Source: an uncultured Phycisphaeraceae bacterium (GTDB lineage: Bacteria > Planctomycetota > Phycisphaerae > Phycisphaerales > UBA1924). From it: a stretch of 28,335 bases of DNA. A program made the position numbers and the translations under genes. The notes under the pieces were generated by a model that saw only the letters and a program-made list of their open reading frames with translations, did no database searches and had not been told where the DNA came from. Shown here one piece after another: positions 5,148 to 26,133 of the stretch. Each line of letters starts with the position of its first letter. Within the stretch, counting starts at the first letter, position 1. Location of the stretch: positions 1 through 28,335 of the forward strand of contig CAZNEU010000189.1 in NCBI GenBank assembly GCA_964571915.1. Reading direction: 5' to 3'.

Positions 5148-6368
5148 TCAGGCCAGTTCGGCCTTGAGCGCCTTGGCGAGGTACTCGTACTGCTCGATCG
5201 TGTTGTAGACGTGGGCCGAGATGCGCACCCAGCGCGCGGGCGATTCCGGGAAAGGGTTGCTCGGCACCTGCACGCGCCACGGCTCCAGCAGCCGCTCCTG
5301 CAAAGGGTCGGGGTACTTGCCGGTTACGCCGCGCTCGCCCCCGCGCCTGTCGGGCAATCGCACCACGGCCATCGCGCCCAGCATGTGGTCGGACACGGGC
5401 GGCTCAACGCCCAACACGCGGCACAACAAATCGCGGCCCCGCAGCGCCAGATCGCGGTTGCGGCACATGATCTCCGGCCAGCCGCCGGGCACGAGGCCAC
5501 CGACAATCGCCGCTGCGTCTGGCGCGGCGAGCCACGGGCTGGTGTCGAGCGTGCCGACGTAGTCGAACTCGAGGCGGAACTTGGAGCGATCGGTGCGGGC
5601 CGAGTTGAAGCCGTGGGAGAGGACGAGGGGGTGGATCAGGTGCTGGCGGTCTGACCGCACGTGCAGGAACGCCGCGCCCTGCGGGGCGCACAGCCACTTG
5701 TGGAAGTTGCCGGTGCAGTACGCCGCGCCGATCTCGGCGACGTTGAAGGGCACGAAGCCGGGTGCGTGGGCGCTGTCCAAGAGTGTGTCGATGCCGCGCG
5801 AGGCGAGTGCGGCGACGATGCGTTTGACGGGCAGGATGATGCCCGTGGGGCTGGTGATGTGAGAGACAAGGGCGAGGCGCGTGCAATTCGTGGCGGCGCC
5901 CACGATGGCATCGACGATTTCGTCGTCGCTGCGCACCGGAAAGGGCAGCGGCACGCTCACCACCCTGGCCCCCCACTGCCGCGCGGCCAGAGCCAGCACG
6001 TTGTTGCAGGCGTTGTACTCGTGCGTGTTGGTGAGGAGTTCATCGCCGGGCTCGAAGCGGAGCGAGCGCACCACGGTGTTCACGCCCGCGGTGGCGTTCT
6101 CCATAAAGGCGAAGTCGTCGGGCGGGCAGCCAACCAGCGCGGCCATGGTGGCGCGGGCCTCATCCAGCAGCGGCTCCAGATCCTCAACGAAGAAGCGGAC
6201 CGGATCGGCATCCATCCGCGCGCGGACGAGGGTCTGCTTGGCTCGCACGCCGCGCGGCACAGCGCCGAACGAACCGTGGTTCAGGAACACCCGGCCCGTG
6301 TCGATGCCGAAGTGCTCGGCCAGCGGCGAGTATGGCGGCAGCACGCTGGACGCGGGGATGTGCGCCAT
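5148..6368 (-). CDS. PLP-dependent class V aminotransferase (isopenicillin N epimerase / cysteine desulfhydrase-like)
   Basis: 406 aa. FLNHGSFGA, DSAHAPG, PLP-lysine motif YCTGNFHKWLCAP, WVRISAHVYN. Confidence 0.88.
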   Translation of the reverse strand: MAHIPASSVLPPYSPLAEHFGIDTGRVFLNHGSFGAVPRGVRAKQTLVRARMDADPVRFFVEDLEPLLDEARATMAALVGCPPDDFAFMENATAGVNTVVRSLRFEPGDELLTNTHEYNACNNVLALAARQWGARVVSVPLPFPVRSDDEIVDAIVGAATNCTRLALVSHITSPTGIILPVKRIVAALASRGIDTLLDSAHAPGFVPFNVAEIGAAYCTGNFHKWLCAPQGAAFLHVRSDRQHLIHPLVLSHGFNSARTDRSKFRLEFDYVGTLDTSPWLAAPDAAAIVGGLVPGGWPEIMCRNRDLALRGRDLLCRVLGVEPPVSDHMLGAMAVVRLPDRRGGERGVTGKYPDPLQERLLEPWRVQVPSNPFPESPARWVRISAHVYNTIEQYEYLAKALKAELA

Positions 6369-6376
6369 GCCTCAGG

Positions 6377-6694
6377 CTACGCCTGCACGTCGAGCGAGCG
6401 GCCGACCGCCACCGCCACCGCCACCGCGGCTTCGTTTCGGGCAATCGGGTTGCGATAGAACGGCAGGCTTGCCCCGGGTCTGGTGGCGATTGGCATCGCG
6501 TGCGCGGCAAAGTCCACCCCGCCGGGCACCACGCCGCCCACGAGCCGCTGGACCGATTCGGGCACCTTCGGGGTCGCGGACTCGGGCGCGCGGTTCGCGG
6601 CCACGATGCCGCGGATTGACCGCACCTGGCCATAGGCTTCGGCGATGCGGAATGAGAGCGGCGTGCTGGGTGTGCTGGCGGGTCCGACGGTCAT
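6377..6694 (-). CDS. Small hypothetical protein (105 aa)
   Basis: Start taken at ATG 6694 (MTVGPASTP...), preceded by TAGCCT 7 nt upstream. Ends AAVAVAVAVGRSLDVQA. It fills the gap between the aminotransferase and the divergent phoU. Confidence 0.65.
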   Translation of the reverse strand: MTVGPASTPSTPLSFRIAEAYGQVRSIRGIVAANRAPESATPKVPESVQRLVGGVVPGGVDFAAHAMPIATRPGASLPFYRNPIARNEAAVAVAVAVGRSLDVQA

Positions 6695-6897
6695 GGGATG
6701 AAGGCTATCGCCTCTGGCGGCACGAGCCCGCCACTTTTCCCGGGCATTTGCGCGGCGGGAGGGAAGCGTTCGGGGCCAAAGGGTCGATATCCGGGCATAT
6801 GCTCGGTTTACGTCTGGACTGGCCGCGCCCGTTGACGCACCATCCCGCCTTCGCAGGGATGAACGGGGCCAGAGCAGATCTTCCACGATTGGCCGCC

Positions 6898-7884: not shown

Positions 7885-9192
<1,308 letters not shown>

Positions 9193-9216
9193 GGCACTCA
9201 CGAAAATCCCTGCCCA

Positions 9217-9269
9217 TTTGGTCATCCGCCACGGCGGACCTTCGGTTTGGCTATTTGCTCACTTGTCTG
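9217..9269. repeat. Degenerate octamer run interrupted by a small GC palindrome
   Basis: TTTGGTCA (9217), TCCGCCACGGCGGA palindrome (9225-9238), then TTTGGCTA, TTTGCTCA, CTTGTCTG (9246-9269). Confidence 0.45.
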
Positions 9270-9275
9270 TATCCT
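9270..9275 (+). promoter_or_regulatory. Putative -10 box (TATCCT) for the nitrilase-family gene, 6 nt before ATG
   Basis: tctgTATCCTgctcccATG; no SD. Confidence 0.6.
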
Positions 9276-9281
9276 GCTCCC

Positions 9282-10151
9282 ATGCCCCGAATCACCCGTG
9301 CCGCGCTCATCCAGTGCTCCAACCCCCTCGCCGACACCACCGATCTCAAAAAGATCAAGTCGGCCATGATCGAAAAGCACCTGGGCCTCATCAAAGCCGC
9401 GGCAGACCAGGGGGCCAACGTCTGCTGCCTGCAGGAAATCTTCTACGGGCCGTACTTCTGCGCCGAGCAGCACGTGAAGTGGTACGAGACCGCCGAGCCG
9501 ATCCCTGACGGGCCGACCGTGCGCCTGATGCAGGAGCTCGCGAAGAAGCACCGCATGGTCATGGTGGTGCCGATCTACGAACTTGCGATGACGGGCGTGT
9601 ACTACAACACCGCCGCGGTGATCGACGAGACGGGCCAGTACCTGGGCCGCTACCGCAAGAAGCACATTCCGCACTGCCACCCCGGCTTCTGGGAGAAGTT
9701 TTACTTCAAGCCCGGCGACGGCGGCTACCCCGTGTTCGAGACGCGCTTCGGCCGCGTCGGTGTCTACATCTGCTACGACCGGCACTTCCCCGAGGGCGCC
9801 CGCGAACTCGGCCTCAACGGTGCCGAGATCGTCTTCAACCCCAGCGCCACCGTCGCGGGCCTGAGCGAGTAACTCTGGAAGTTGGAGCAGCCGGCCCACG
9901 CCGTGGCCAACCAGTATTTCGTGGGGGCCATCAACCGTGTGGGCACCGAGGCCCCGTGGAACATCGGCGAGTTCTACGGCCAGAGTTACTTCTGCGACCC
10001 GCGCGGCAAGATCATGCGGCAGGCCAGCCGCGACAAGGACGAGGTGGTGGTGGCCGACCTGGACCTTGACCAGATCACGGAGGTGCGCAACGTCTGGCAG
10101 TTCTACCGTGACCGTCGGCCCGAGACCTACACCGAGACGACGCGGGTGTGA
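9282..10151 (+). pseudogene. Beta-ureidopropionase-like nitrilase-superfamily amidohydrolase interrupted by an in-frame TAA at 9870-9872
   Basis: Catalytic E-K-C motifs CLQEIFYGPYFC, YRKKHIP, YICYDRHFPEGAR. The reading frame continues GLSE*LWKLEQPAHAVANQYFVGAINRVG...FYRDRRPETY. Could be a true nonsense allele, a sequencing error or read-through. Confidence 0.8.
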
Positions 10152-18298: not shown

Positions 18299-18772
18299 AT
18301 GCCCACCGAGAACCCGGCCAATCAGTACCTGACCGTCAAGGTGATGTCCGCCGCGCCCGAAGAGTTGCGGCTCATGCTCATCGAGGGGGCGATCAAGTTC
18401 TGCCGGCAGGGGCAGGAGGCCCTCGCCCGCAAAGACTTTGAGGGGTGCCACAAGGGCTACACGCGCTGCCGCGAGATCATCCTGGAACTGATGAACACCA
18501 TGCGGGCGGACGTGGACCCCGAACTGTGCGGCCGCCTCAGCGGCATCTACACCTTCATGTACACCCAACTCGTTGAGAGCAGCGCCACCAAAGACCCGGC
18601 CCGGGCCGACCAGGTCGCCGCCCTCCTCGAATACGACCGCGAGACGTGGCTGATGCTCATGAAGAAACTCGCCGAGCAGAAGGGCACCGCCGCGTCGGCC
18701 GGAGATGGCACGCCCGATGGCACGCCTGCCAACACTGCCGCCGATCGCCCCGCGCTCTCCCTGAGCGCGTGA
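18299..18772 (+). CDS. fliS: Flagellin chaperone FliS
   Basis: NQYLTVKVMSAAPEELRLMLIEGAIKF, IILELMNTM, LSGIYTFMYTQL, LLEYDRETW; downstream of fliD. Confidence 0.93.
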   Translation: MPTENPANQYLTVKVMSAAPEELRLMLIEGAIKFCRQGQEALARKDFEGCHKGYTRCREIILELMNTMRADVDPELCGRLSGIYTFMYTQLVESSATKDPARADQVAALLEYDRETWLMLMKKLAEQKGTAASAGDGTPDGTPANTAADRPALSLSA

Positions 18773-18780
18773 GCGACGAA

Positions 18781-18887
18781 AGGCAAGCAGAACAAAGTTC
18801 AGAGTAGAAAGTTCAAAGTTCAAGTAGTGGGGTGCCTCCTGCGCGCCTGAACTCTGAACTTTGTGCTCTGAACTTTTGCATTTGCCT
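18781..18887. repeat. Palindromic heptamer element (YTGAACT arms)
   Basis: Left: AGGCAA...AGTTCAG-AGTAGAA-AGTTCAA-AGTTCAA (18796-18823). Right: CTGAACT-CTGAACT-TTGTGCT-CTGAACT (18847-18874)...TTGCCT. Confidence 0.9.
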
Positions 18888-18924
18888 CGGCCCTCGGCCC
18901 TCGGCCCAGTGCCCAGTGCCTTCC
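18888..18924 (+). repeat. Heptamer tandem (half-element) of the CCAGTGC family
   Basis: CGGCCCT-CGGCCCT-CGGCCCA-GTGCCCA-GTGCCTT-CC. The end CCAGTGCCTTCC is identical to the right end of the sucC insert. Confidence 0.8.
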
Positions 18925-18936
18925 CTCTCCCCCGAA

Positions 18937-18942
18937 TACCAT
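18937..18942 (+). promoter_or_regulatory. Putative -10 box (TACCAT), 6 nt before the uridylyltransferase ATG
   Basis: cgaaTACCATcggcccATG; no SD. Confidence 0.6.
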
Positions 18943-18948
18943 CGGCCC

Positions 18949-20430
18949 ATGCCCACCGCCCCCGCGCCAGTTGACACGCACGCACTCGCCCGGCGTCTGC
19001 GTGCGCTGGGGCAGGACCACGTGCTCAACCTCGAGAGCACGCTCACCCCAGACCGGCGTGCCACCCTCTGGTCGCAACTCGCATCGCTTGATCTCGCGGC
19101 GCTCCCGTCGCTCATCGATCGCTACGTCAAGTCCAAGCCGACCGCCGCCATCGCCGGCACAATCGAACCCGTCGCCGCCTACGCGCTCCATCCGTCCGCC
19201 GCCTCTCCCGCGTGGGACCGCCCCTCGTACACCTCCCGCGGCATCGACCTTCTCCGTTCGGGCAAGGTCGCGGCCTTCACCGTCGCTGGCGGACAAGGCT
19301 CGCGCCTCGGCTTTGAGGGTCCCAAGGGCTGCTACCCCGGCGGCAGTGTTACCGGCAAGCCGCTCTTCGCCTGCCTGGCCGAGTGGATCATCGCCGCCCA
19401 GCGCCGCTGGTGCGCACCCGGCGCCGCCATCCCCTGGTACATCATGACCAGCCCCGCCAACCACGCGGCCACCACCGCTTTCTTCGAGGAGCACCGCTTC
19501 TTCGGCCTGCGGCGCGAGAACGTCATGTTCTTCCCCCAAGGCGTGGCCCCGGCTCTCGAAATCGGTACAGGGCGCCTTCTCATGGCAAGCCCCTGTGAAC
19601 TCTCCCTCGCGCCCGACGGCCACGGCGGCTCTCTCAAGGCCCTCCTCGCGTCCGGCGCCATCGCCGACATGCGCCGCCGCGGCATCGAACACATCAGTTA
19701 CACCCAGATCGATAACCCCCTTGTCAAGGTCATGGATCCGCTCTTTCTCGGCCTGCACGCCTTCGCGCCAGACTCTTCCGCGGAGATGTCCACCAAGATC
19801 GTCGCCAAAGCCCACGCACACGAAAAGGTCGGCCTCCTCTGCCGCGTCGGCCGTGGGGGTGGAGAGGAACGCACCGCGGTCATCGAGTACTCAGACCTCC
19901 CCGCCGAACTGGCCACGGCCACGAACCCCGACGGTTCGCTCCGCTATAACGCCGGCAACATCGCCATCCACATCATCAGCGTGGCCTTCATCGAGCGGCT
20001 CTTCGCCCCCGGCAGCAGCACCGCCATGCCCTGGCACCGGGCCGACAAGAAGATCGCCTGCATCGACCCCGCCACGGGCTCCCGCATCGAGCCCGCCGCG
20101 CCCAACGCCGTGAAACTCGAGATGTTCGTCTTCGATGCCCTCCCCCTCTGCCGTCAGTCGCTCGTCCTCGAGACCGACCGCGAAGAGTTCGCTCCCATCA
20201 AGAACGCGACCGGCCCGGATTCGGTCGAAACCTGCCGCGACATCCAGACCGCCCGCGCCGCACGCTGGCTCATCGCATCCGGCCACGCCGTGCCGGCGCG
20301 CCCGGACGGCTCGCCCGACTGCACGCTCGAACTCAGCCCGCTCGTGGCCCTGGAGTCCGCCGACCTGCGCGGCAAGTCGCTCACCCAGCCCATCACGCCC
20401 GGCTCCAAGGTGAACGTGCAAACGCTGTGA
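18949..20430 (+). CDS. UDPGP-family uridylyltransferase (eukaryote-type UDP-GlcNAc/UDP-glucose pyrophosphorylase)
   Basis: VAGGQGSRLGFEGPKG, WYIMTS, FFPQG, APDGHGG, QIDNPL, HEKVG, VIEYSDL, KLEMFVFDALP, EFAPIKN. Start ATG 18949; 493 aa. Confidence 0.92.
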   Translation: MPTAPAPVDTHALARRLRALGQDHVLNLESTLTPDRRATLWSQLASLDLAALPSLIDRYVKSKPTAAIAGTIEPVAAYALHPSAASPAWDRPSYTSRGIDLLRSGKVAAFTVAGGQGSRLGFEGPKGCYPGGSVTGKPLFACLAEWIIAAQRRWCAPGAAIPWYIMTSPANHAATTAFFEEHRFFGLRRENVMFFPQGVAPALEIGTGRLLMASPCELSLAPDGHGGSLKALLASGAIADMRRRGIEHISYTQIDNPLVKVMDPLFLGLHAFAPDSSAEMSTKIVAKAHAHEKVGLLCRVGRGGGEERTAVIEYSDLPAELATATNPDGSLRYNAGNIAIHIISVAFIERLFAPGSSTAMPWHRADKKIACIDPATGSRIEPAAPNAVKLEMFVFDALPLCRQSLVLETDREEFAPIKNATGPDSVETCRDIQTARAARWLIASGHAVPARPDGSPDCTLELSPLVALESADLRGKSLTQPITPGSKVNVQTL

Positions 20431-23674: not shown

Positions 23675-25264
23675 TTGTATCACTCGCTGCTCACACGCCG
23701 GTATCTCACGACCAGGCTCATGCCGCTGCTGGCGGCGCTGGCGGTGACGCTGTGCACGGCCATGGTGCTGATCGTGTGGTCGGTGATGGGCGGGTTCCTG
23801 AACATGCTCCTGGCCAGCGGGCGGACCATGGCGGGCGACGTGCTCATCACCTGGCCCACGGTGGGCTTCGCGTACTACGACGACCTGATTGCCCGGCTGG
23901 AGAAGGAGACCGACACGGTCGCGGCGGCCACGCCGATCATCGAGACGCTGGGTGTGGTCAACCTTCCCGACGGGCGGGTGGAGGGCATCCAGGTGAAGGG
24001 GATCGATGCCGCCAGTTATGCACGGGTGGTGGACTTTGACGCCTCGCTGTGGTGGCGGCCGCTCGAGCGGCCGGTGAAGAAGGACCGCGACCGCCAGGAC
24101 CTGCGCCTGAGCCCCGAGTATCAGGAGCGTCTGGGACGGACCTTGGACGATGGGCTGGCGATGAGCCAGGCGGACCGTGGGGGCACGGGCGGGCAGGGGG
24201 GCGTGGTGGAACGGCCCGCCATGGTGACGGGGATCGAACTGCTGGGGCTCTCGCAGCGGGAGACGCAGGGTTTTTATTCCATCAAACGCTGGGGCAAGCC
24301 GGACGTGGCGGGCGACGTCGAGATGAAACAAGTCTTCGCACCCAACGCGGAGGTGACGCTGCGCGTGCTGCCGCTGGACAAAAAGGGGCGGACGATCGAC
24401 CTGGCCTCACGCGTGTTTCCCGTGGCCAACGAGTTCCGCACGGGCATCTTCGAGATTGACCGCCGGACCGCCCTGGTGCCCCTGCCCACGCTTCAACGCA
24501 TGCTGAAGATGGACGCGGCCAAGCGGCTGAACACGACCGACCTCGACACGTCGGCGGTGGAGCGCGACCCCGCGAGCGGACGCGAGGCCTTCGGCGAGGT
24601 GCGCACGCTTGGCGAAGAGCCGGCACGGGCCACCACCGTGCTCGTGCGGGCCCGGCCGGGCGTGTCGCCCGAGGCACTCCGCGACCGCTGCCTGGGCGTG
24701 TACGCGGACTTCGCAGCGGCCCGCGGCAAGGCCGTGCCGGCGCACATCCTGATGACGAGCAACCGGCTGATCCGCACGTGGGAGGAGAACAACGCGCAGT
24801 TGGTGGGCGCGGTGAAGAAGGAGACCATCGTGGTGCTCTCCATCCTCACGTTCATCTCGGTCACGGCATCGTTCCTCATCCTGGCGATCTTCTGGGCAAT
24901 GGTGAGCGAGAAGACGCGCGATGTGGGCATTCTGCGGGCGGTGGGCGCGAGCCGCGCGGGCGTGGCGTGGCTGTGGCTGCGGTACGGCCTGGCGATCGGC
25001 CTGGTGGGGTCGGCGTGCGGCGGGCTGCTCGCCTTCGGCGTGATCCACAACATCAACGAGATTCACGACTACCTGGGAGCACAGTTCCAGGTGGCGGTGT
25101 GGGACCCCAAGGTCTATTACTTCACGGAGATCCCCAGCGTGGTGGAGCCGTGGAAGGCGGCGCTGGTGCTCTCGTGCGGCCTGTTCTTCTCCGTTGTGGG
25201 TGCGCTCATCCCCGCCATACGCGCGGCGAGCATGGACCCGGTCCAGGCGTTGCGGTTTGAGTAG
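23675..25264 (+). CDS. LolC/E-like (MacB/FtsX family) ABC permease
   Basis: Start inferred at TTG 23675 (xYHSLLTRRYL). TM1 LLAALAVTLCTAMVLIVWSVMGGF, EKTRDVGILRAVGA, VYYFTEIPS, C-terminal DPVQALRFE. Confidence 0.88.
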   Translation: MYHSLLTRRYLTTRLMPLLAALAVTLCTAMVLIVWSVMGGFLNMLLASGRTMAGDVLITWPTVGFAYYDDLIARLEKETDTVAAATPIIETLGVVNLPDGRVEGIQVKGIDAASYARVVDFDASLWWRPLERPVKKDRDRQDLRLSPEYQERLGRTLDDGLAMSQADRGGTGGQGGVVERPAMVTGIELLGLSQRETQGFYSIKRWGKPDVAGDVEMKQVFAPNAEVTLRVLPLDKKGRTIDLASRVFPVANEFRTGIFEIDRRTALVPLPTLQRMLKMDAAKRLNTTDLDTSAVERDPASGREAFGEVRTLGEEPARATTVLVRARPGVSPEALRDRCLGVYADFAAARGKAVPAHILMTSNRLIRTWEENNAQLVGAVKKETIVVLSILTFISVTASFLILAIFWAMVSEKTRDVGILRAVGASRAGVAWLWLRYGLAIGLVGSACGGLLAFGVIHNINEIHDYLGAQFQVAVWDPKVYYFTEIPSVVEPWKAALVLSCGLFFSVVGALIPAIRAASMDPVQALRFE

Positions 25265-25305
25265 CGAGCGCGTGCGCGTGCGCGACACGCGCCTCATCGG
25301 AACGG

Positions 25306-25340
25306 CGGAACTCTGAACCTTGAACTCTGAACTTTGACCC
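25306..25340 (+). repeat. Heptamer tandem (half-element) of the YTGAACT family between lolC/E and lolD
   Basis: CGGAACT-CTGAACC-TTGAACT-CTGAACT-TTGACCC; same unit as the right arm at 18847-18874. Confidence 0.85.
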
Positions 25341-25368
25341 TTTTCCCCGCACGACACACACGCCCGGC

Positions 25369-26133
25369 ATGACCTCCTTCTCTGCCAACCCAACGCTTGA
25401 CGTTGCACCGCCGGTGCCTGCGGCGTACCTGTCTGCGCACAACGTCCATAAGACGTATCTGCTGGGTCGGGTGGAGGTGCCGGTGCTGCGCGGCGTGTCG
25501 ATCTCGGTCGCCAAGGGCGAGTGGGTTGCGATCCTGGGTGCTTCGGGCTCGGGCAAGAGCACCCTTCTGCACCTGCTGGGCGGGCTCGACCGGCCCGACC
25601 GGGGGCTGGGCGCCGTCTCCTTCGACGGGCGCAGCGTGACGGCGTTCTCCGCGGGCGCGATCGACATCTACCGCAACACGAGCGTGGGCTTTGTCTTCCA
25701 GTTCTACCACCTGCTGCCGGAACTGAACGTGATGGAGAACGTGCTGGTGAGCGCCATGATCCGCCACGGCCGGTTCGGGTTCAGCCGCCGCGCACCGGAC
25801 CTGCGCCGACGGGCGGCCGATCTGCTGAATCTTTTCGGCCTGGGGCACCGATTGCGGCACAGGCCCAGCGAGCTCTCCGGCGGCGAACGCCAGCGCGTGG
25901 CGATCGCCCGGGCCCTCATCAACCAGCCGCCCGTGCTGCTGGCCGACGAGCCGACGGGCAACCTGGACAAGGCGGCGGGCCGGGCCATTCTGGAACTCAT
26001 TGACGAACGCCGGCGTGCCGCGGCACTGACGGTGGTGATGGTTACGCACGATCCGGACGTGGCGGCGCGGGCCGATCGCGTGGTCCGGCTTCTGGACGGA
26101 CGGATGGACGAAGCAGGGGCACGCGGCGGCTGA
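25369..26133 (+). CDS. lolD: LolD-like ABC ATP-binding protein
   Basis: Walker A GASGSGKSTL, FVFQFYHLL, signature LSGGERQRVAIARAL, Walker B VLLADEPTGNLD, VTHD. Confidence 0.88.
   Translation: MTSFSANPTLDVAPPVPAAYLSAHNVHKTYLLGRVEVPVLRGVSISVAKGEWVAILGASGSGKSTLLHLLGGLDRPDRGLGAVSFDGRSVTAFSAGAIDIYRNTSVGFVFQFYHLLPELNVMENVLVSAMIRHGRFGFSRRAPDLRRRAADLLNLFGLGHRLRHRPSELSGGERQRVAIARALINQPPVLLADEPTGNLDKAAGRAILELIDERRRAAALTVVMVTHDPDVAARADRVVRLLDGRMDEAGARGG

Follow-up and report, generated by a model that had tools for sequence, protein, structure and literature searches.

A heptamer hairpin downstream of fliS in a Phycisphaerales genome and its inferred relation to cassettes carrying four-helix-bundle genes

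The window, a contig of 28,335 nt (GenBank CAZNEU010000189.1; G+C content 67.7%), derives from a genome that is placed in the Phycisphaerales (Planctomycetota) by the closest relatives of its sequence. Its fliS gene is followed, 8 nt after the TGA stop codon, by a tract of tandem 7-nt units (18781–18923) that is predicted to fold into a long hairpin. The interpretation that we favour, with modest confidence, is that this element is a member without an open reading frame (ORF) of a widespread class of heptamer hairpins resembling the intervening sequences (IVSs) of 23S rRNA, with units that turn over in place and a putative long RNA stem. The class is characterised by inverted heptamer arms of ~31 nt (~4.5 units) in which the unit is variable, the 5' unit usually being of the form AG-K-K-G-Y-Y. 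Full-length members enclose a gene of the TIGR02436/PF05635 family (Avd-like; the 'S23p' of 23S rRNA IVSs), and the short tandemly repeated repetitive (STRR) arrays of cyanobacteria and the inverted GGGAATC pairs of Xanthomonas appear to be other faces of the same class. A sequence-only reading of this DNA had assigned the element to a mobile family of miniature hairpins with changing arms; such a family, with about four to five heptamers per arm and an arm sequence that varies from copy to copy, is real.

Structure of the heptamer tract

The spacer between fliS and a UDP-sugar pyrophosphorylase (UDPGP) gene, both on the + strand downstream of fliD, is 176 nt long (18773–18948) and filled by heptamers. 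Six in-phase units from 18781 (AGGCAAG, CAGAACA, AAGTTCA, GAGTAGA, AAGTTCA, AAGTTCA) are followed by a GC-rich loop of 24–25 nt and by eleven units in one unbroken register from 18847 to 18923 (CTGAACT, CTGAACT, TTGTGCT, CTGAACT, TTTGCAT, TTGCCTC, GGCCCTC, GGCCCTC, GGCCCAG, TGCCCAG, TGCCTTC). The central four units on either side, of the AAGTTCA and YTGAACT types (5' arm 18795–18822, 3' arm 18847–18874, + strand), give a 29-bp stem around the loop AGTAGTGGGGTGCCTCCTGCGCGC (18823–18846), which contains a small stem-loop within the fold. The earlier count of four units per arm was accurate, as was the observation that one degenerate unit on each arm sits at a mirror position: GAGTAGA and TGTGCTC are pairing partners, with five Watson-Crick pairs, one G-U pair and one mismatch. 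Further out, the two left heptamers AGGCAAG and CAGAACA (18781–18794) are complementary to TTTGCAT and TTGCCT, which begin the seven additional in-register heptamers on the right (18875–18923). Units of the CCAGTGC type had been described as following the hairpin directly; in fact 2.6 copies of CGGCCCT intervene, all in one register. Since the junctions between unit types are all in phase, the tract appears to have diversified in place rather than to have been assembled from separate insertions.

Tandem Repeats Finder identified period-7 repeats at 18793–18823 (4.4 copies), 18847–18874 (4.0 copies), 18885–18907 and 18904–18920, and an inverted-repeat search returned 29-nt arms at 18794–18822 and 18848–18876 with 90% complementarity and a separation of 25 nt. 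The predicted RNA fold of 18781–18887 has an energy of −53.8 kcal/mol (z = −6.8), equalled by none of 200 shuffled sequences, and in the fold of the whole spacer (z = −6.1) the outer AAGGCA also pairs with a distal TGCCTT at 18917–18922. Identity at lag 7 within the tract was 0.60–0.66, a value reached by none of 5000 shuffles, and lag-7 periodicity in the window was confined to three loci (8217–8322, 18787–18932 and 25299–25350); at the remaining lags, multiples of three excluded, 0–2 segments were found, compared with several for lag 7. The G+C content falls to 0.53–0.57 across the element.

The tract was assembled independently in Logan contigs of several metagenome runs, with a single-nucleotide polymorphism in the loop (18833 T>C) as the one difference and no insertions or deletions; contigs of four DNA runs contained no copy-number variants, although contigs hide rare variants. 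The motifs CTGAACT, CCAGTC and GAGCACA also occur in the Illumina TruSeq adapter. An adapter or assembly artefact was nevertheless rejected: the strand arrangement is unlike that of the adapter, the repeats of the tract run in tandem and in one phase and recur in the independent Logan contigs, the copy in sucC described below is in frame and present in another metagenome-assembled genome (MAG), and the same architecture is found in finished cyanobacterial plasmids.

The third locus with lag-7 periodicity holds a solitary array of the fliS-type unit on the + strand (25306–25347; CGGAACT, CTGAACC, TTGAACT, CTGAACT, TTGACCC) with no inverted partner; it is located directly upstream of an ABC-transporter ATPase gene (ATG at 25369) and is preceded by a GCGTGC hexamer repeat (25264–25284).

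Heptamer arms around four-helix-bundle genes

In L277, a Phycisphaerales contig that also carries a SucC homolog (compared DNA loci are labelled Lnnn), the stretch 6168–6771 has arrays of (AGGGCAC)n and (GTGCCCT)n that bracket a gene for a polypeptide of 127 residues, which matches the TIGR02436 four helix bundle, PF05635 (23S rRNA IVS protein) and Avd-like models. The arm unit is identical at six of seven positions to that of the sucC hairpin of the window. Homologs bracketed likewise, by other units, are present in L164 (5659–6209 and 7503–8000) and L194 (4327–4754), loci that had been picked for their TGAACT arrays.

A set of 80 four-helix-bundle loci from many phyla (L278–L357 included), the best matches to a query built from array-associated proteins, was analysed for such arrays. 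A period-7 array lay within 300 nt upstream of the gene in 58 loci, downstream in 65 and on both sides in 53, so that a co-location with four-helix-bundle genes, which the sequence-only reading had suggested checking, is borne out at the level of the class, with 53 of 80 TIGR02436 genes between inverted heptamer arrays. In 38 of these 53 the left unit is the reverse complement of the right unit, either exactly (25 loci) or with one mismatch (13 loci). Median copy numbers in the two arms are 4.6 and 4.4, a median of 394 nt separates the arrays, and period 7 accounts for 205 of the ~430 tandem repeats in the 80 loci. The length of cassette arms peaks at 30–33 nt (49/135), whereas arrays in control loci decay from 14–17 nt, the detection limit. 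The dinucleotide AG was present in the unit of the 5' arm in 44 of 53 cassettes and in that of the 3' arm in 8 of 53 (logo A-G-K-K-G-Y-Y).

Gaps between inverted arrays are bimodal, with ORF-less hairpins at 7–80 nt and gene-containing cassettes at ~345–450 nt. ORF-less hairpins of the same unit are found within 1–2 kb of cassettes in L283, L299, L338, L345 and L357; the arms of hairpin and cassette in L299 are identical at 31 of 33 positions and share the same degenerate third unit, which indicates that whole arms are copied.

Finished plasmids of Nostoc edaphicum and Calothrix brevissima have genes annotated as 'four helix bundle protein' or 'S23 ribosomal protein' between inverted complementary heptamers, and the architecture is therefore not an artefact of MAGs; in a finished plasmid of Nostoc PCC 7120 such a gene adjoins heptamer arrays, and there the flanking arrays are not complementary. 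In plasmid pNe_5 of N. edaphicum (L362, NZ_CP054697, 258982–260126) a cassette of ~480 nt, (AGTAGGG)n–gene–(CCCTACT)n, fills the nrdB–nrdA spacer, which is empty and only 16 nt long in Calothrix NIES-4105 (L364, AP018291, 170162–170925). No clear target duplication was seen at this pair, the flanks of which have diverged. Cassettes and their ORF-less twins behave as discrete insertions, and heptamer units would enter and leave sites as discrete blocks, as the Nostoc cassette and the sucC hairpin suggest.

The sucC hairpin and in-frame inserts

The second hairpin of the window (8219–8313, + strand) lies in frame within sucC (7885–9192, + strand). It has arms of the GGCACTG and CCAGTGC types (5' arm AGGCATC, GGGCACT, GGACACT, CGGCACT; 3' arm CCAGTGC, CCAGTGC, CCAGTCC, CCAGTGC; fold z = −5.3) and, read in frame, contributes ~30 extra SucC residues after DIAER. 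The insert is common to the window and L154 (SucC 87% identical) and is missing in L155 (91% identical over aligned columns), where the loop reads AAG GGT GGC GGC AAA; no target duplication was visible at this filled/empty pair, the flanks having diverged. Presence or absence at orthologous sites, expected for the family by the sequence-only reading, is seen among close relatives at sucC; the fliS site is occupied, with turnover, in both genomes available for comparison.

More distant Phycisphaerales have other inserts at the same sucC loop, for example a GGCAATG/CATTGCC heptamer hairpin in L276, and a second sucC loop in L277 contains (GAGTCAG)9(CAGGACC)5, giving 7-residue peptide repeats such as QESGVRS. 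An in-frame CCAGTGC array ending in CCAGTGCCTTC is present in L026 (2880–2908) in the gene of a class I aminoacyl-tRNA synthetase, a short distance ahead of the KMSKS motif, and specifies SAQSPVPSA, a peptide that the SucC insert of the window also contains. The filled/empty pattern together with these other inserts indicates that discrete blocks come and go and that tolerant protein loops collect them; the class accounts for odd in-frame inserts in housekeeping genes of Phycisphaerales.

Heptamers were also seen past sucC. The spacer after its stop codon (9190–9281) begins with TAAGGCAC and contains the degenerate CATTTGC-like units TTTGGCT, ATTTGCT and CACTTGT, and in the corresponding spacer of L155 a CTCTTCG heptamer array is accompanied by a single CCAGTGC unit. 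In this clade, spacers are in general seeded with heptamers.

Turnover in the orthologous fliS spacer

The sole true ortholog of the fliS–UDPGP spacer was found in L001, a MAG contig with FliS 96% and UDPGP 88% identical to those of the window. A metagenome scan with FliS yielded distant relatives only (≤58% identity), and the UDPGP relatives at 72–76% identity have no fliS upstream, which leaves a single spacer for comparison. The L001 spacer consists entirely of heptamers, including 13 in-phase units on the right, with a content other than that of the window: CTGACGC, CTGATGT and CTGACGT are found where the window has the CTGAACT arm, and there are ~6 copies of CATTTGC versus ~1.5 in the window, one of CGGCCC versus three and one of CCAGTGC versus two. 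Different units and copy numbers in a kept register point to turnover in place, not to presence or absence, and the suggestion of a mobile element at fliS is not supported, since L001 shows turnover and expansion in register, the kind of pattern that the sequence-only reading had itself named as refuting it. In addition, L001 carries GAGCACA, the exact complement of TGTGCTC in the window, and its left side retains AAGTTCAGAGCACA, exactly complementary to the right arm of the window. The mirror 'degenerate' unit is thus ancestral and the left copy in the window changed later, one of the changes preserving a G-U pair and one breaking pairing. No stable fold was detected in the L001 spacer when compared with shuffled sequences (z = −0.09, as against −6.1 for the window spacer). 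Because the fold is lost in the ortholog, the tract is probably close to neutral at its locus, where whole 7-nt units, once in place, would be gained, lost and replaced with the register kept.

Proposed assignment of the fliS element to the class

We infer that the cassettes have an ORF-less relative in the fliS hairpin. Its arms of 31 and 28 nt are near the class peak, its start 8 nt past a stop codon also suits the class, and a 5' unit of the AG type is present both here (AGTTCAA/TTGAACT) and at sucC (RGGCACT/AGTGCCY); polarity counts for ORF-less hairpins were 24:0 and 25:9 in favour of an AG-type 5' arm. With a loop of 24 nt and no TIGR02436/PF05635 homolog in the window, the element can only be an ORF-less relative. 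It also has the traits of STRR-type arrays, being intergenic, composed of head-to-tail 7-nt units with a convergent inverted pair, and occupying a site that is filled but variable in the ortholog.

The tract would be transcribed together with fliS and its stem of ~29–40 bp, if it acts at all, would probably act as a double-stranded RNA element, by analogy with the stems of IVSs either as an RNase III site or as a barrier at the 3' end, which may uncouple fliS from the downstream gene.

Several results weigh against this assignment. The polarity of ORF-less hairpins is a bias (25:9) and no rule, and AAGTTCA and GGCACTG are atypical at positions 4–7 of the AGKKGYY logo. No four-helix-bundle gene was found by hidden Markov model search in the window, nor in the other loci of close relatives, and such genes near TGAACT arrays numbered three in 857 kb versus none in 876 kb, a weak association. 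Most arrays thus lack a gene of this kind in their vicinity and any dependence on it is conjectural, and the share of loci with arrays on both sides (66%) may overestimate that of the whole family because the query came from array-associated proteins. Neither a target-site duplication nor defined ends were seen at either filled/empty pair (sucC, Nostoc/Calothrix). At the level of RNA, no RNA-seq run was found to contain the locus, a scan for intrinsic terminators and promoters called nothing at the fliS site, and a selected RNA function there is doubtful because the hairpin is not kept in the sole ortholog.

Possible slippage in place and the distribution of units

The single register spanning five unit types on the right side, seen also in the ortholog, the turnover in units and copy number and the loss of the fold in L001 are all compatible with a plain heptanucleotide microsatellite, which would have arisen by slippage in place, with inversion by strand-switch duplication, and would have neither a relation to cassettes nor a function. 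An excess of heptameric simple sequence repeats (SSRs), for which polymerase slippage with a preference for 7 nt was proposed, has been described in many bacteria (Mrazek et al., 2007, as cited in PMC4679880 and PMC4692102), and the scarcity of four-helix-bundle genes near arrays fits this account as well. We regard it as possible, but not as the probable one, since slippage alone leaves unexplained the recurrence of the same units at many loci in many phyla, the polarity of inverted pairs, the sharp arm-length peak at 30–33 nt in place of a decay, whole arms with the same degenerate unit at two loci, and blocks that are present or absent as wholes.

As to the units, three consecutive copies of TGAACTY were found at at least 120 loci, compared with ~4 expected by chance, and the phyla among the matches listed were Acidobacteriota, Planctomycetota, Verrucomicrobiota, Bacteroidota, Cyanobacteriota, Desulfobacterota, Chloroflexota, Patescibacteria and others. 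Nine inverted pairs among these listed loci are strict, and every one of them has the polarity of the window, 5'-(AAGTTCA)n..(TGAACTT)n-3'. A scan with the 14-mer CCAGTGCCCAGTGC gave mostly chance matches; among those listed, true CCAGTGC arrays were present in Acidobacteriota, Gemmatimonadota and Actinomycetota, and CCAGTGC arrays and hairpins together occurred in several phyla. Perfect (AAGTTCA)n 31-mers reached a depth of 180–500x in the source metagenomes versus 7–39x for single-copy sequence, which shows the unit to be abundant there.

One of the AAGTTCA hairpins, in L196 (1–200), is located at the start of its contig and has 30-nt flanks that are perfectly complementary past the arms; this palindrome may be an assembly artefact at the contig end.

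A possible terminator or 3' stabiliser

The strong stem starts 8 nt past the fliS stop codon and is followed by UUUUGCAUUUG, features that would suit an intrinsic terminator or 3' stabiliser of the fliD–fliS transcript built from repeats by happenstance. Comparable cases are a heptamer hairpin 3 nt past the fliS stop in L125 (FliS 49% identical) and L071, in which heptamer arrays are located on either side of a classical terminator hairpin. We nonetheless consider this explanation unlikely. The scan does not call the site, the loop of 24 nt being too long and the tail UUUUGCAUUUG without a tract of five T in eight; the stem is AT-rich; a stable hairpin is missing from the closest ortholog; in other phyla, hairpins with this unit have no T tract; and an insert of the same architecture is part of the coding sequence of sucC, in which a terminator would be lethal. 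A search of the whole window against Rfam 15 at the gathering score gave 0 matches.

Heptamers as possible protein-binding sites

The nearest solved relative of the L277 protein is Xcc0516 (PDB 2gsc), a family member that forms a pentamer of four-helix bundles (PMC10053308). The arrays might on this basis be putative binding sites, with one heptamer per subunit of a pentameric Avd-like protein, or sites for a different protein that binds single strands, for example a cold-shock protein, with the protein driving spread or maintenance in trans. Arms peaking at ~4.5 units would suit a pentamer, units tend to be more alike where the proteins are more alike (Spearman −0.16; mean unit distance 2.3 versus 3.0), and cassettes share their units with nearby ORF-less hairpins. 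The numerical match is, however, the sole direct argument, the weak covariation is what co-inheritance alone gives, few arrays have a four-helix-bundle gene nearby, and the S23p of Coxiella is apparently not made in vivo (PMC4990558). We consequently give this idea little credence.

A broader proposal, which must be seen as speculative, is that heptamer-armed hairpins, including STRRs and the heptamer SSR excess, could be miniature, ORF-less versions of a selfish cassette that is pan-bacterial and that in its complete version has an Avd-like pentameric four-helix-bundle gene between arms of ~4.5 heptamers. Such a cassette would insert in spacers between cistrons, in helices of rRNA and in protein loops that tolerate it, and would do little harm because its long stem is eliminated or made innocuous in the RNA, while a protein or host factor reading 7-nt units would set the length of the arms and spread them.

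The AGGCA and TGCCT pentamers

The sequence-only reading had regarded AGGCA and TGCCT as the termini of a family resembling repetitive extragenic palindromes (REPs) or MITEs (transposable elements of the miniature inverted-repeat type), defined by these ends and its fold and mobilised in trans by a transposase (a REP-associated tyrosine transposase, RAYT, or an IS200/IS605 TnpA). The strings are where it placed them, AGGCA at 18781 and 8219 and TGCCT at 18883 and 8309, and CCAGTGCCTTCC is indeed common to the right end of the sucC hairpin and the fliS tract, occurring at 8305 and 18913 only. The window contains AGGCA 14 times and TGCCT 19 times (in the fliS tract at 18781, and at 18883, 18833 and 18917, respectively), and the two hairpins are the only AGGCA..TGCCT pairs 60–140 nt apart in 28 kb, compared with 0.76 expected. 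Furthermore, other loci have (T/G)AAGGCA right past a stop codon where an array starts at its 5' edge, a recurrence that unit composition leaves unexplained, and the presence/absence pattern at sucC would also suit a mobile family.

Both pentamers are located within heptamer units. At fliS, AGGCA is inside AGGCAAG and TGCCT inside TTGCCTC, outer units of the GCAAATG/CATTTGC type that has ~6 copies in the ortholog; at sucC, the arm unit RGGCACT has AGGCATC as its degenerate first copy, and TGCCT arises from the final arm unit together with one further base. As judged from these sequences, the pentamers are pieces of a second heptamer family (RGGCAYY/nnTGCCn) rather than recombination ends, and the claim that they define the family fails. 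Arrays of RGGCAYY/nnnTGCC are frequent in Phycisphaerales (L071, L125, L070, L026 and L276). Among 71 short-loop heptamer hairpins in all compared DNA, four had both pentamers and three of these four have a unit containing GGCA; among the 66 hairpins with a GGCA-less unit, both were found in the fliS element alone. The sharing of pentamers between the two hairpins of the window is thus attributable to unit composition.

Searches for the marks of known mobile palindromes were negative. As conserved terminal inverted repeats of the MITE kind, the window hairpins share AGGCA/TGCCT alone; a conserved REP palindrome with a 5' GTAG-type tetranucleotide was absent, the arms being heptamer arrays of differing sequence; and the loops of the two window hairpins and of relatives have nothing recognisable in common. 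A scan of the 20 ORFs of the window against Pfam revealed no transposase, RAYT or IS200/IS605 gene, in agreement with the sequence-only reading. With arms and loops of the two copies unrelated, no empty site in the fliS ortholog and no target duplication visible at sucC, a MITE-like family mobilised by a transposase is highly improbable.

Relation to known systems

Heptameric repeats have been reported from several lineages. Xanthomonas genomes contain ~185 GGGAATC arrays, of which 70–75 are convergent pairs, at conserved sites and with a length that is variable between species (Rehm et al., 2015; PMC4692102), and TAACTGA repeats were described in Beggiatoaceae (MacGregor, 2015; PMC4679880). 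The fliS element resembles these and the STRRs of Calothrix and Anabaena in its period of 7, its intergenic position, the occurrence of few units at many loci, the convergent pairs and the occupation of the site in related genomes with differing length and sequence. It differs in its lineage and in its AAGTTCA, RGGCAYY and CGGCCCT units, all undescribed in the literature searched, in combining several unit types in one register, and in having a sister copy in frame in sucC. In the same literature, published accounts of heptameric SSRs draw no link to four-helix-bundle genes, and no general link of TIGR02436/PF05635 genes to heptamer arrays was found, although family annotations may mention one.

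The IVS in the 23S rRNA of Coxiella burnetii, the one relative studied by experiment, is a selfish element with an S23p ORF and a terminal stem of 28 bp that RNase III cleaves, and it contains tandem heptamers the number of which varies among strains (PMC4990558). A terminal inverted repeat of ~28–30 bp and variable heptamers in the stem are thus features that the window element shares with the IVSs of C. burnetii and Leptospira, and the gene family that IVSs enclose, PF05635/TIGR02436, is the one bracketed by heptamer arms in 53 of the 80 loci. Unlike an IVS, the window element is ORF-less and in an mRNA spacer; RNase III cleavage is established for the Coxiella IVS and is putative for the window element. 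ORF-less 23S rRNA IVSs also exist.

REPs, bacterial interspersed mosaic elements (BIMEs) and MITEs such as Correia and Nezha are likewise small multicopy extragenic palindromes, often located just past stop codons and with possible effects at the RNA level. They differ from the hairpins described here, in which copies share no palindrome or terminal inverted repeat, the heptamer arms change in sequence, no target duplication was seen and no cognate transposase was found among the 20 window ORFs. Rickettsia palindromic elements are a sequence-conserved family inserted in frame in protein genes. The sucC hairpin is comparable as a palindromic insert of ~90 nt, in frame, in a predicted surface loop of a housekeeping enzyme, and so are the arrays of relatives in the second sucC loop and in the aminoacyl-tRNA synthetase; in contrast to the Rickettsia elements, the architecture alone is conserved here.

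The fliS element belongs to a known, unexplained kind and adds an unstudied lineage to the heptamer hairpins seen in Xanthomonas and cyanobacteria, the origin and role of which have been in question since 1990 and 2007. The part worth pursuing is the link to the cassettes. An architecture of ~31-nt arms with variable units and biased polarity brackets most of the TIGR02436/PF05635 genes sampled in many phyla, and this makes the question 'why heptamers?' experimentally approachable, through RNase III processing and protein-heptamer binding.

Neighbouring genes and other features

The flagellar chaperone gene fliS (18299–18772, + strand) was identified from its translation (Pfam PF02561, E = 3e-28). 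The stretch 18934–18951 (+ strand) comprises the ATG of the UDPGP gene (Pfam PF01704), at 18949, and a GAATACC motif at 18934–18940, ~15 nt before the ATG, which is kept in L001, L358 and L360 and persists in relatives in which the gene upstream of UDPGP differs. More distant UDPGP genes have other upstream neighbours and short, heptamer-free spacers and keep GAATACC. The motif is probably part of the UDPGP gene's own expression signal and forms the right-hand boundary of that part of the spacer which evolves freely.

The carbon-nitrogen hydrolase gene that follows the post-sucC spacer (9282–10151, + strand) has an in-frame stop at 9870–9872 in place of a Tyr conserved in L155 (GLSE*LWKLE versus GLSEYLWKLE), for which a nonsense mutation, a pseudogene or an error in sequencing may account. 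Finally, the 3' end of fliS contains a perfect 12-nt tandem duplication (GATGGCACGCC x2, 18704–18726) encoding the peptide DGTPDGTP in the C-terminal tail of FliS, and this duplicated tail is the part of FliS that diverges most from the L001 ortholog.

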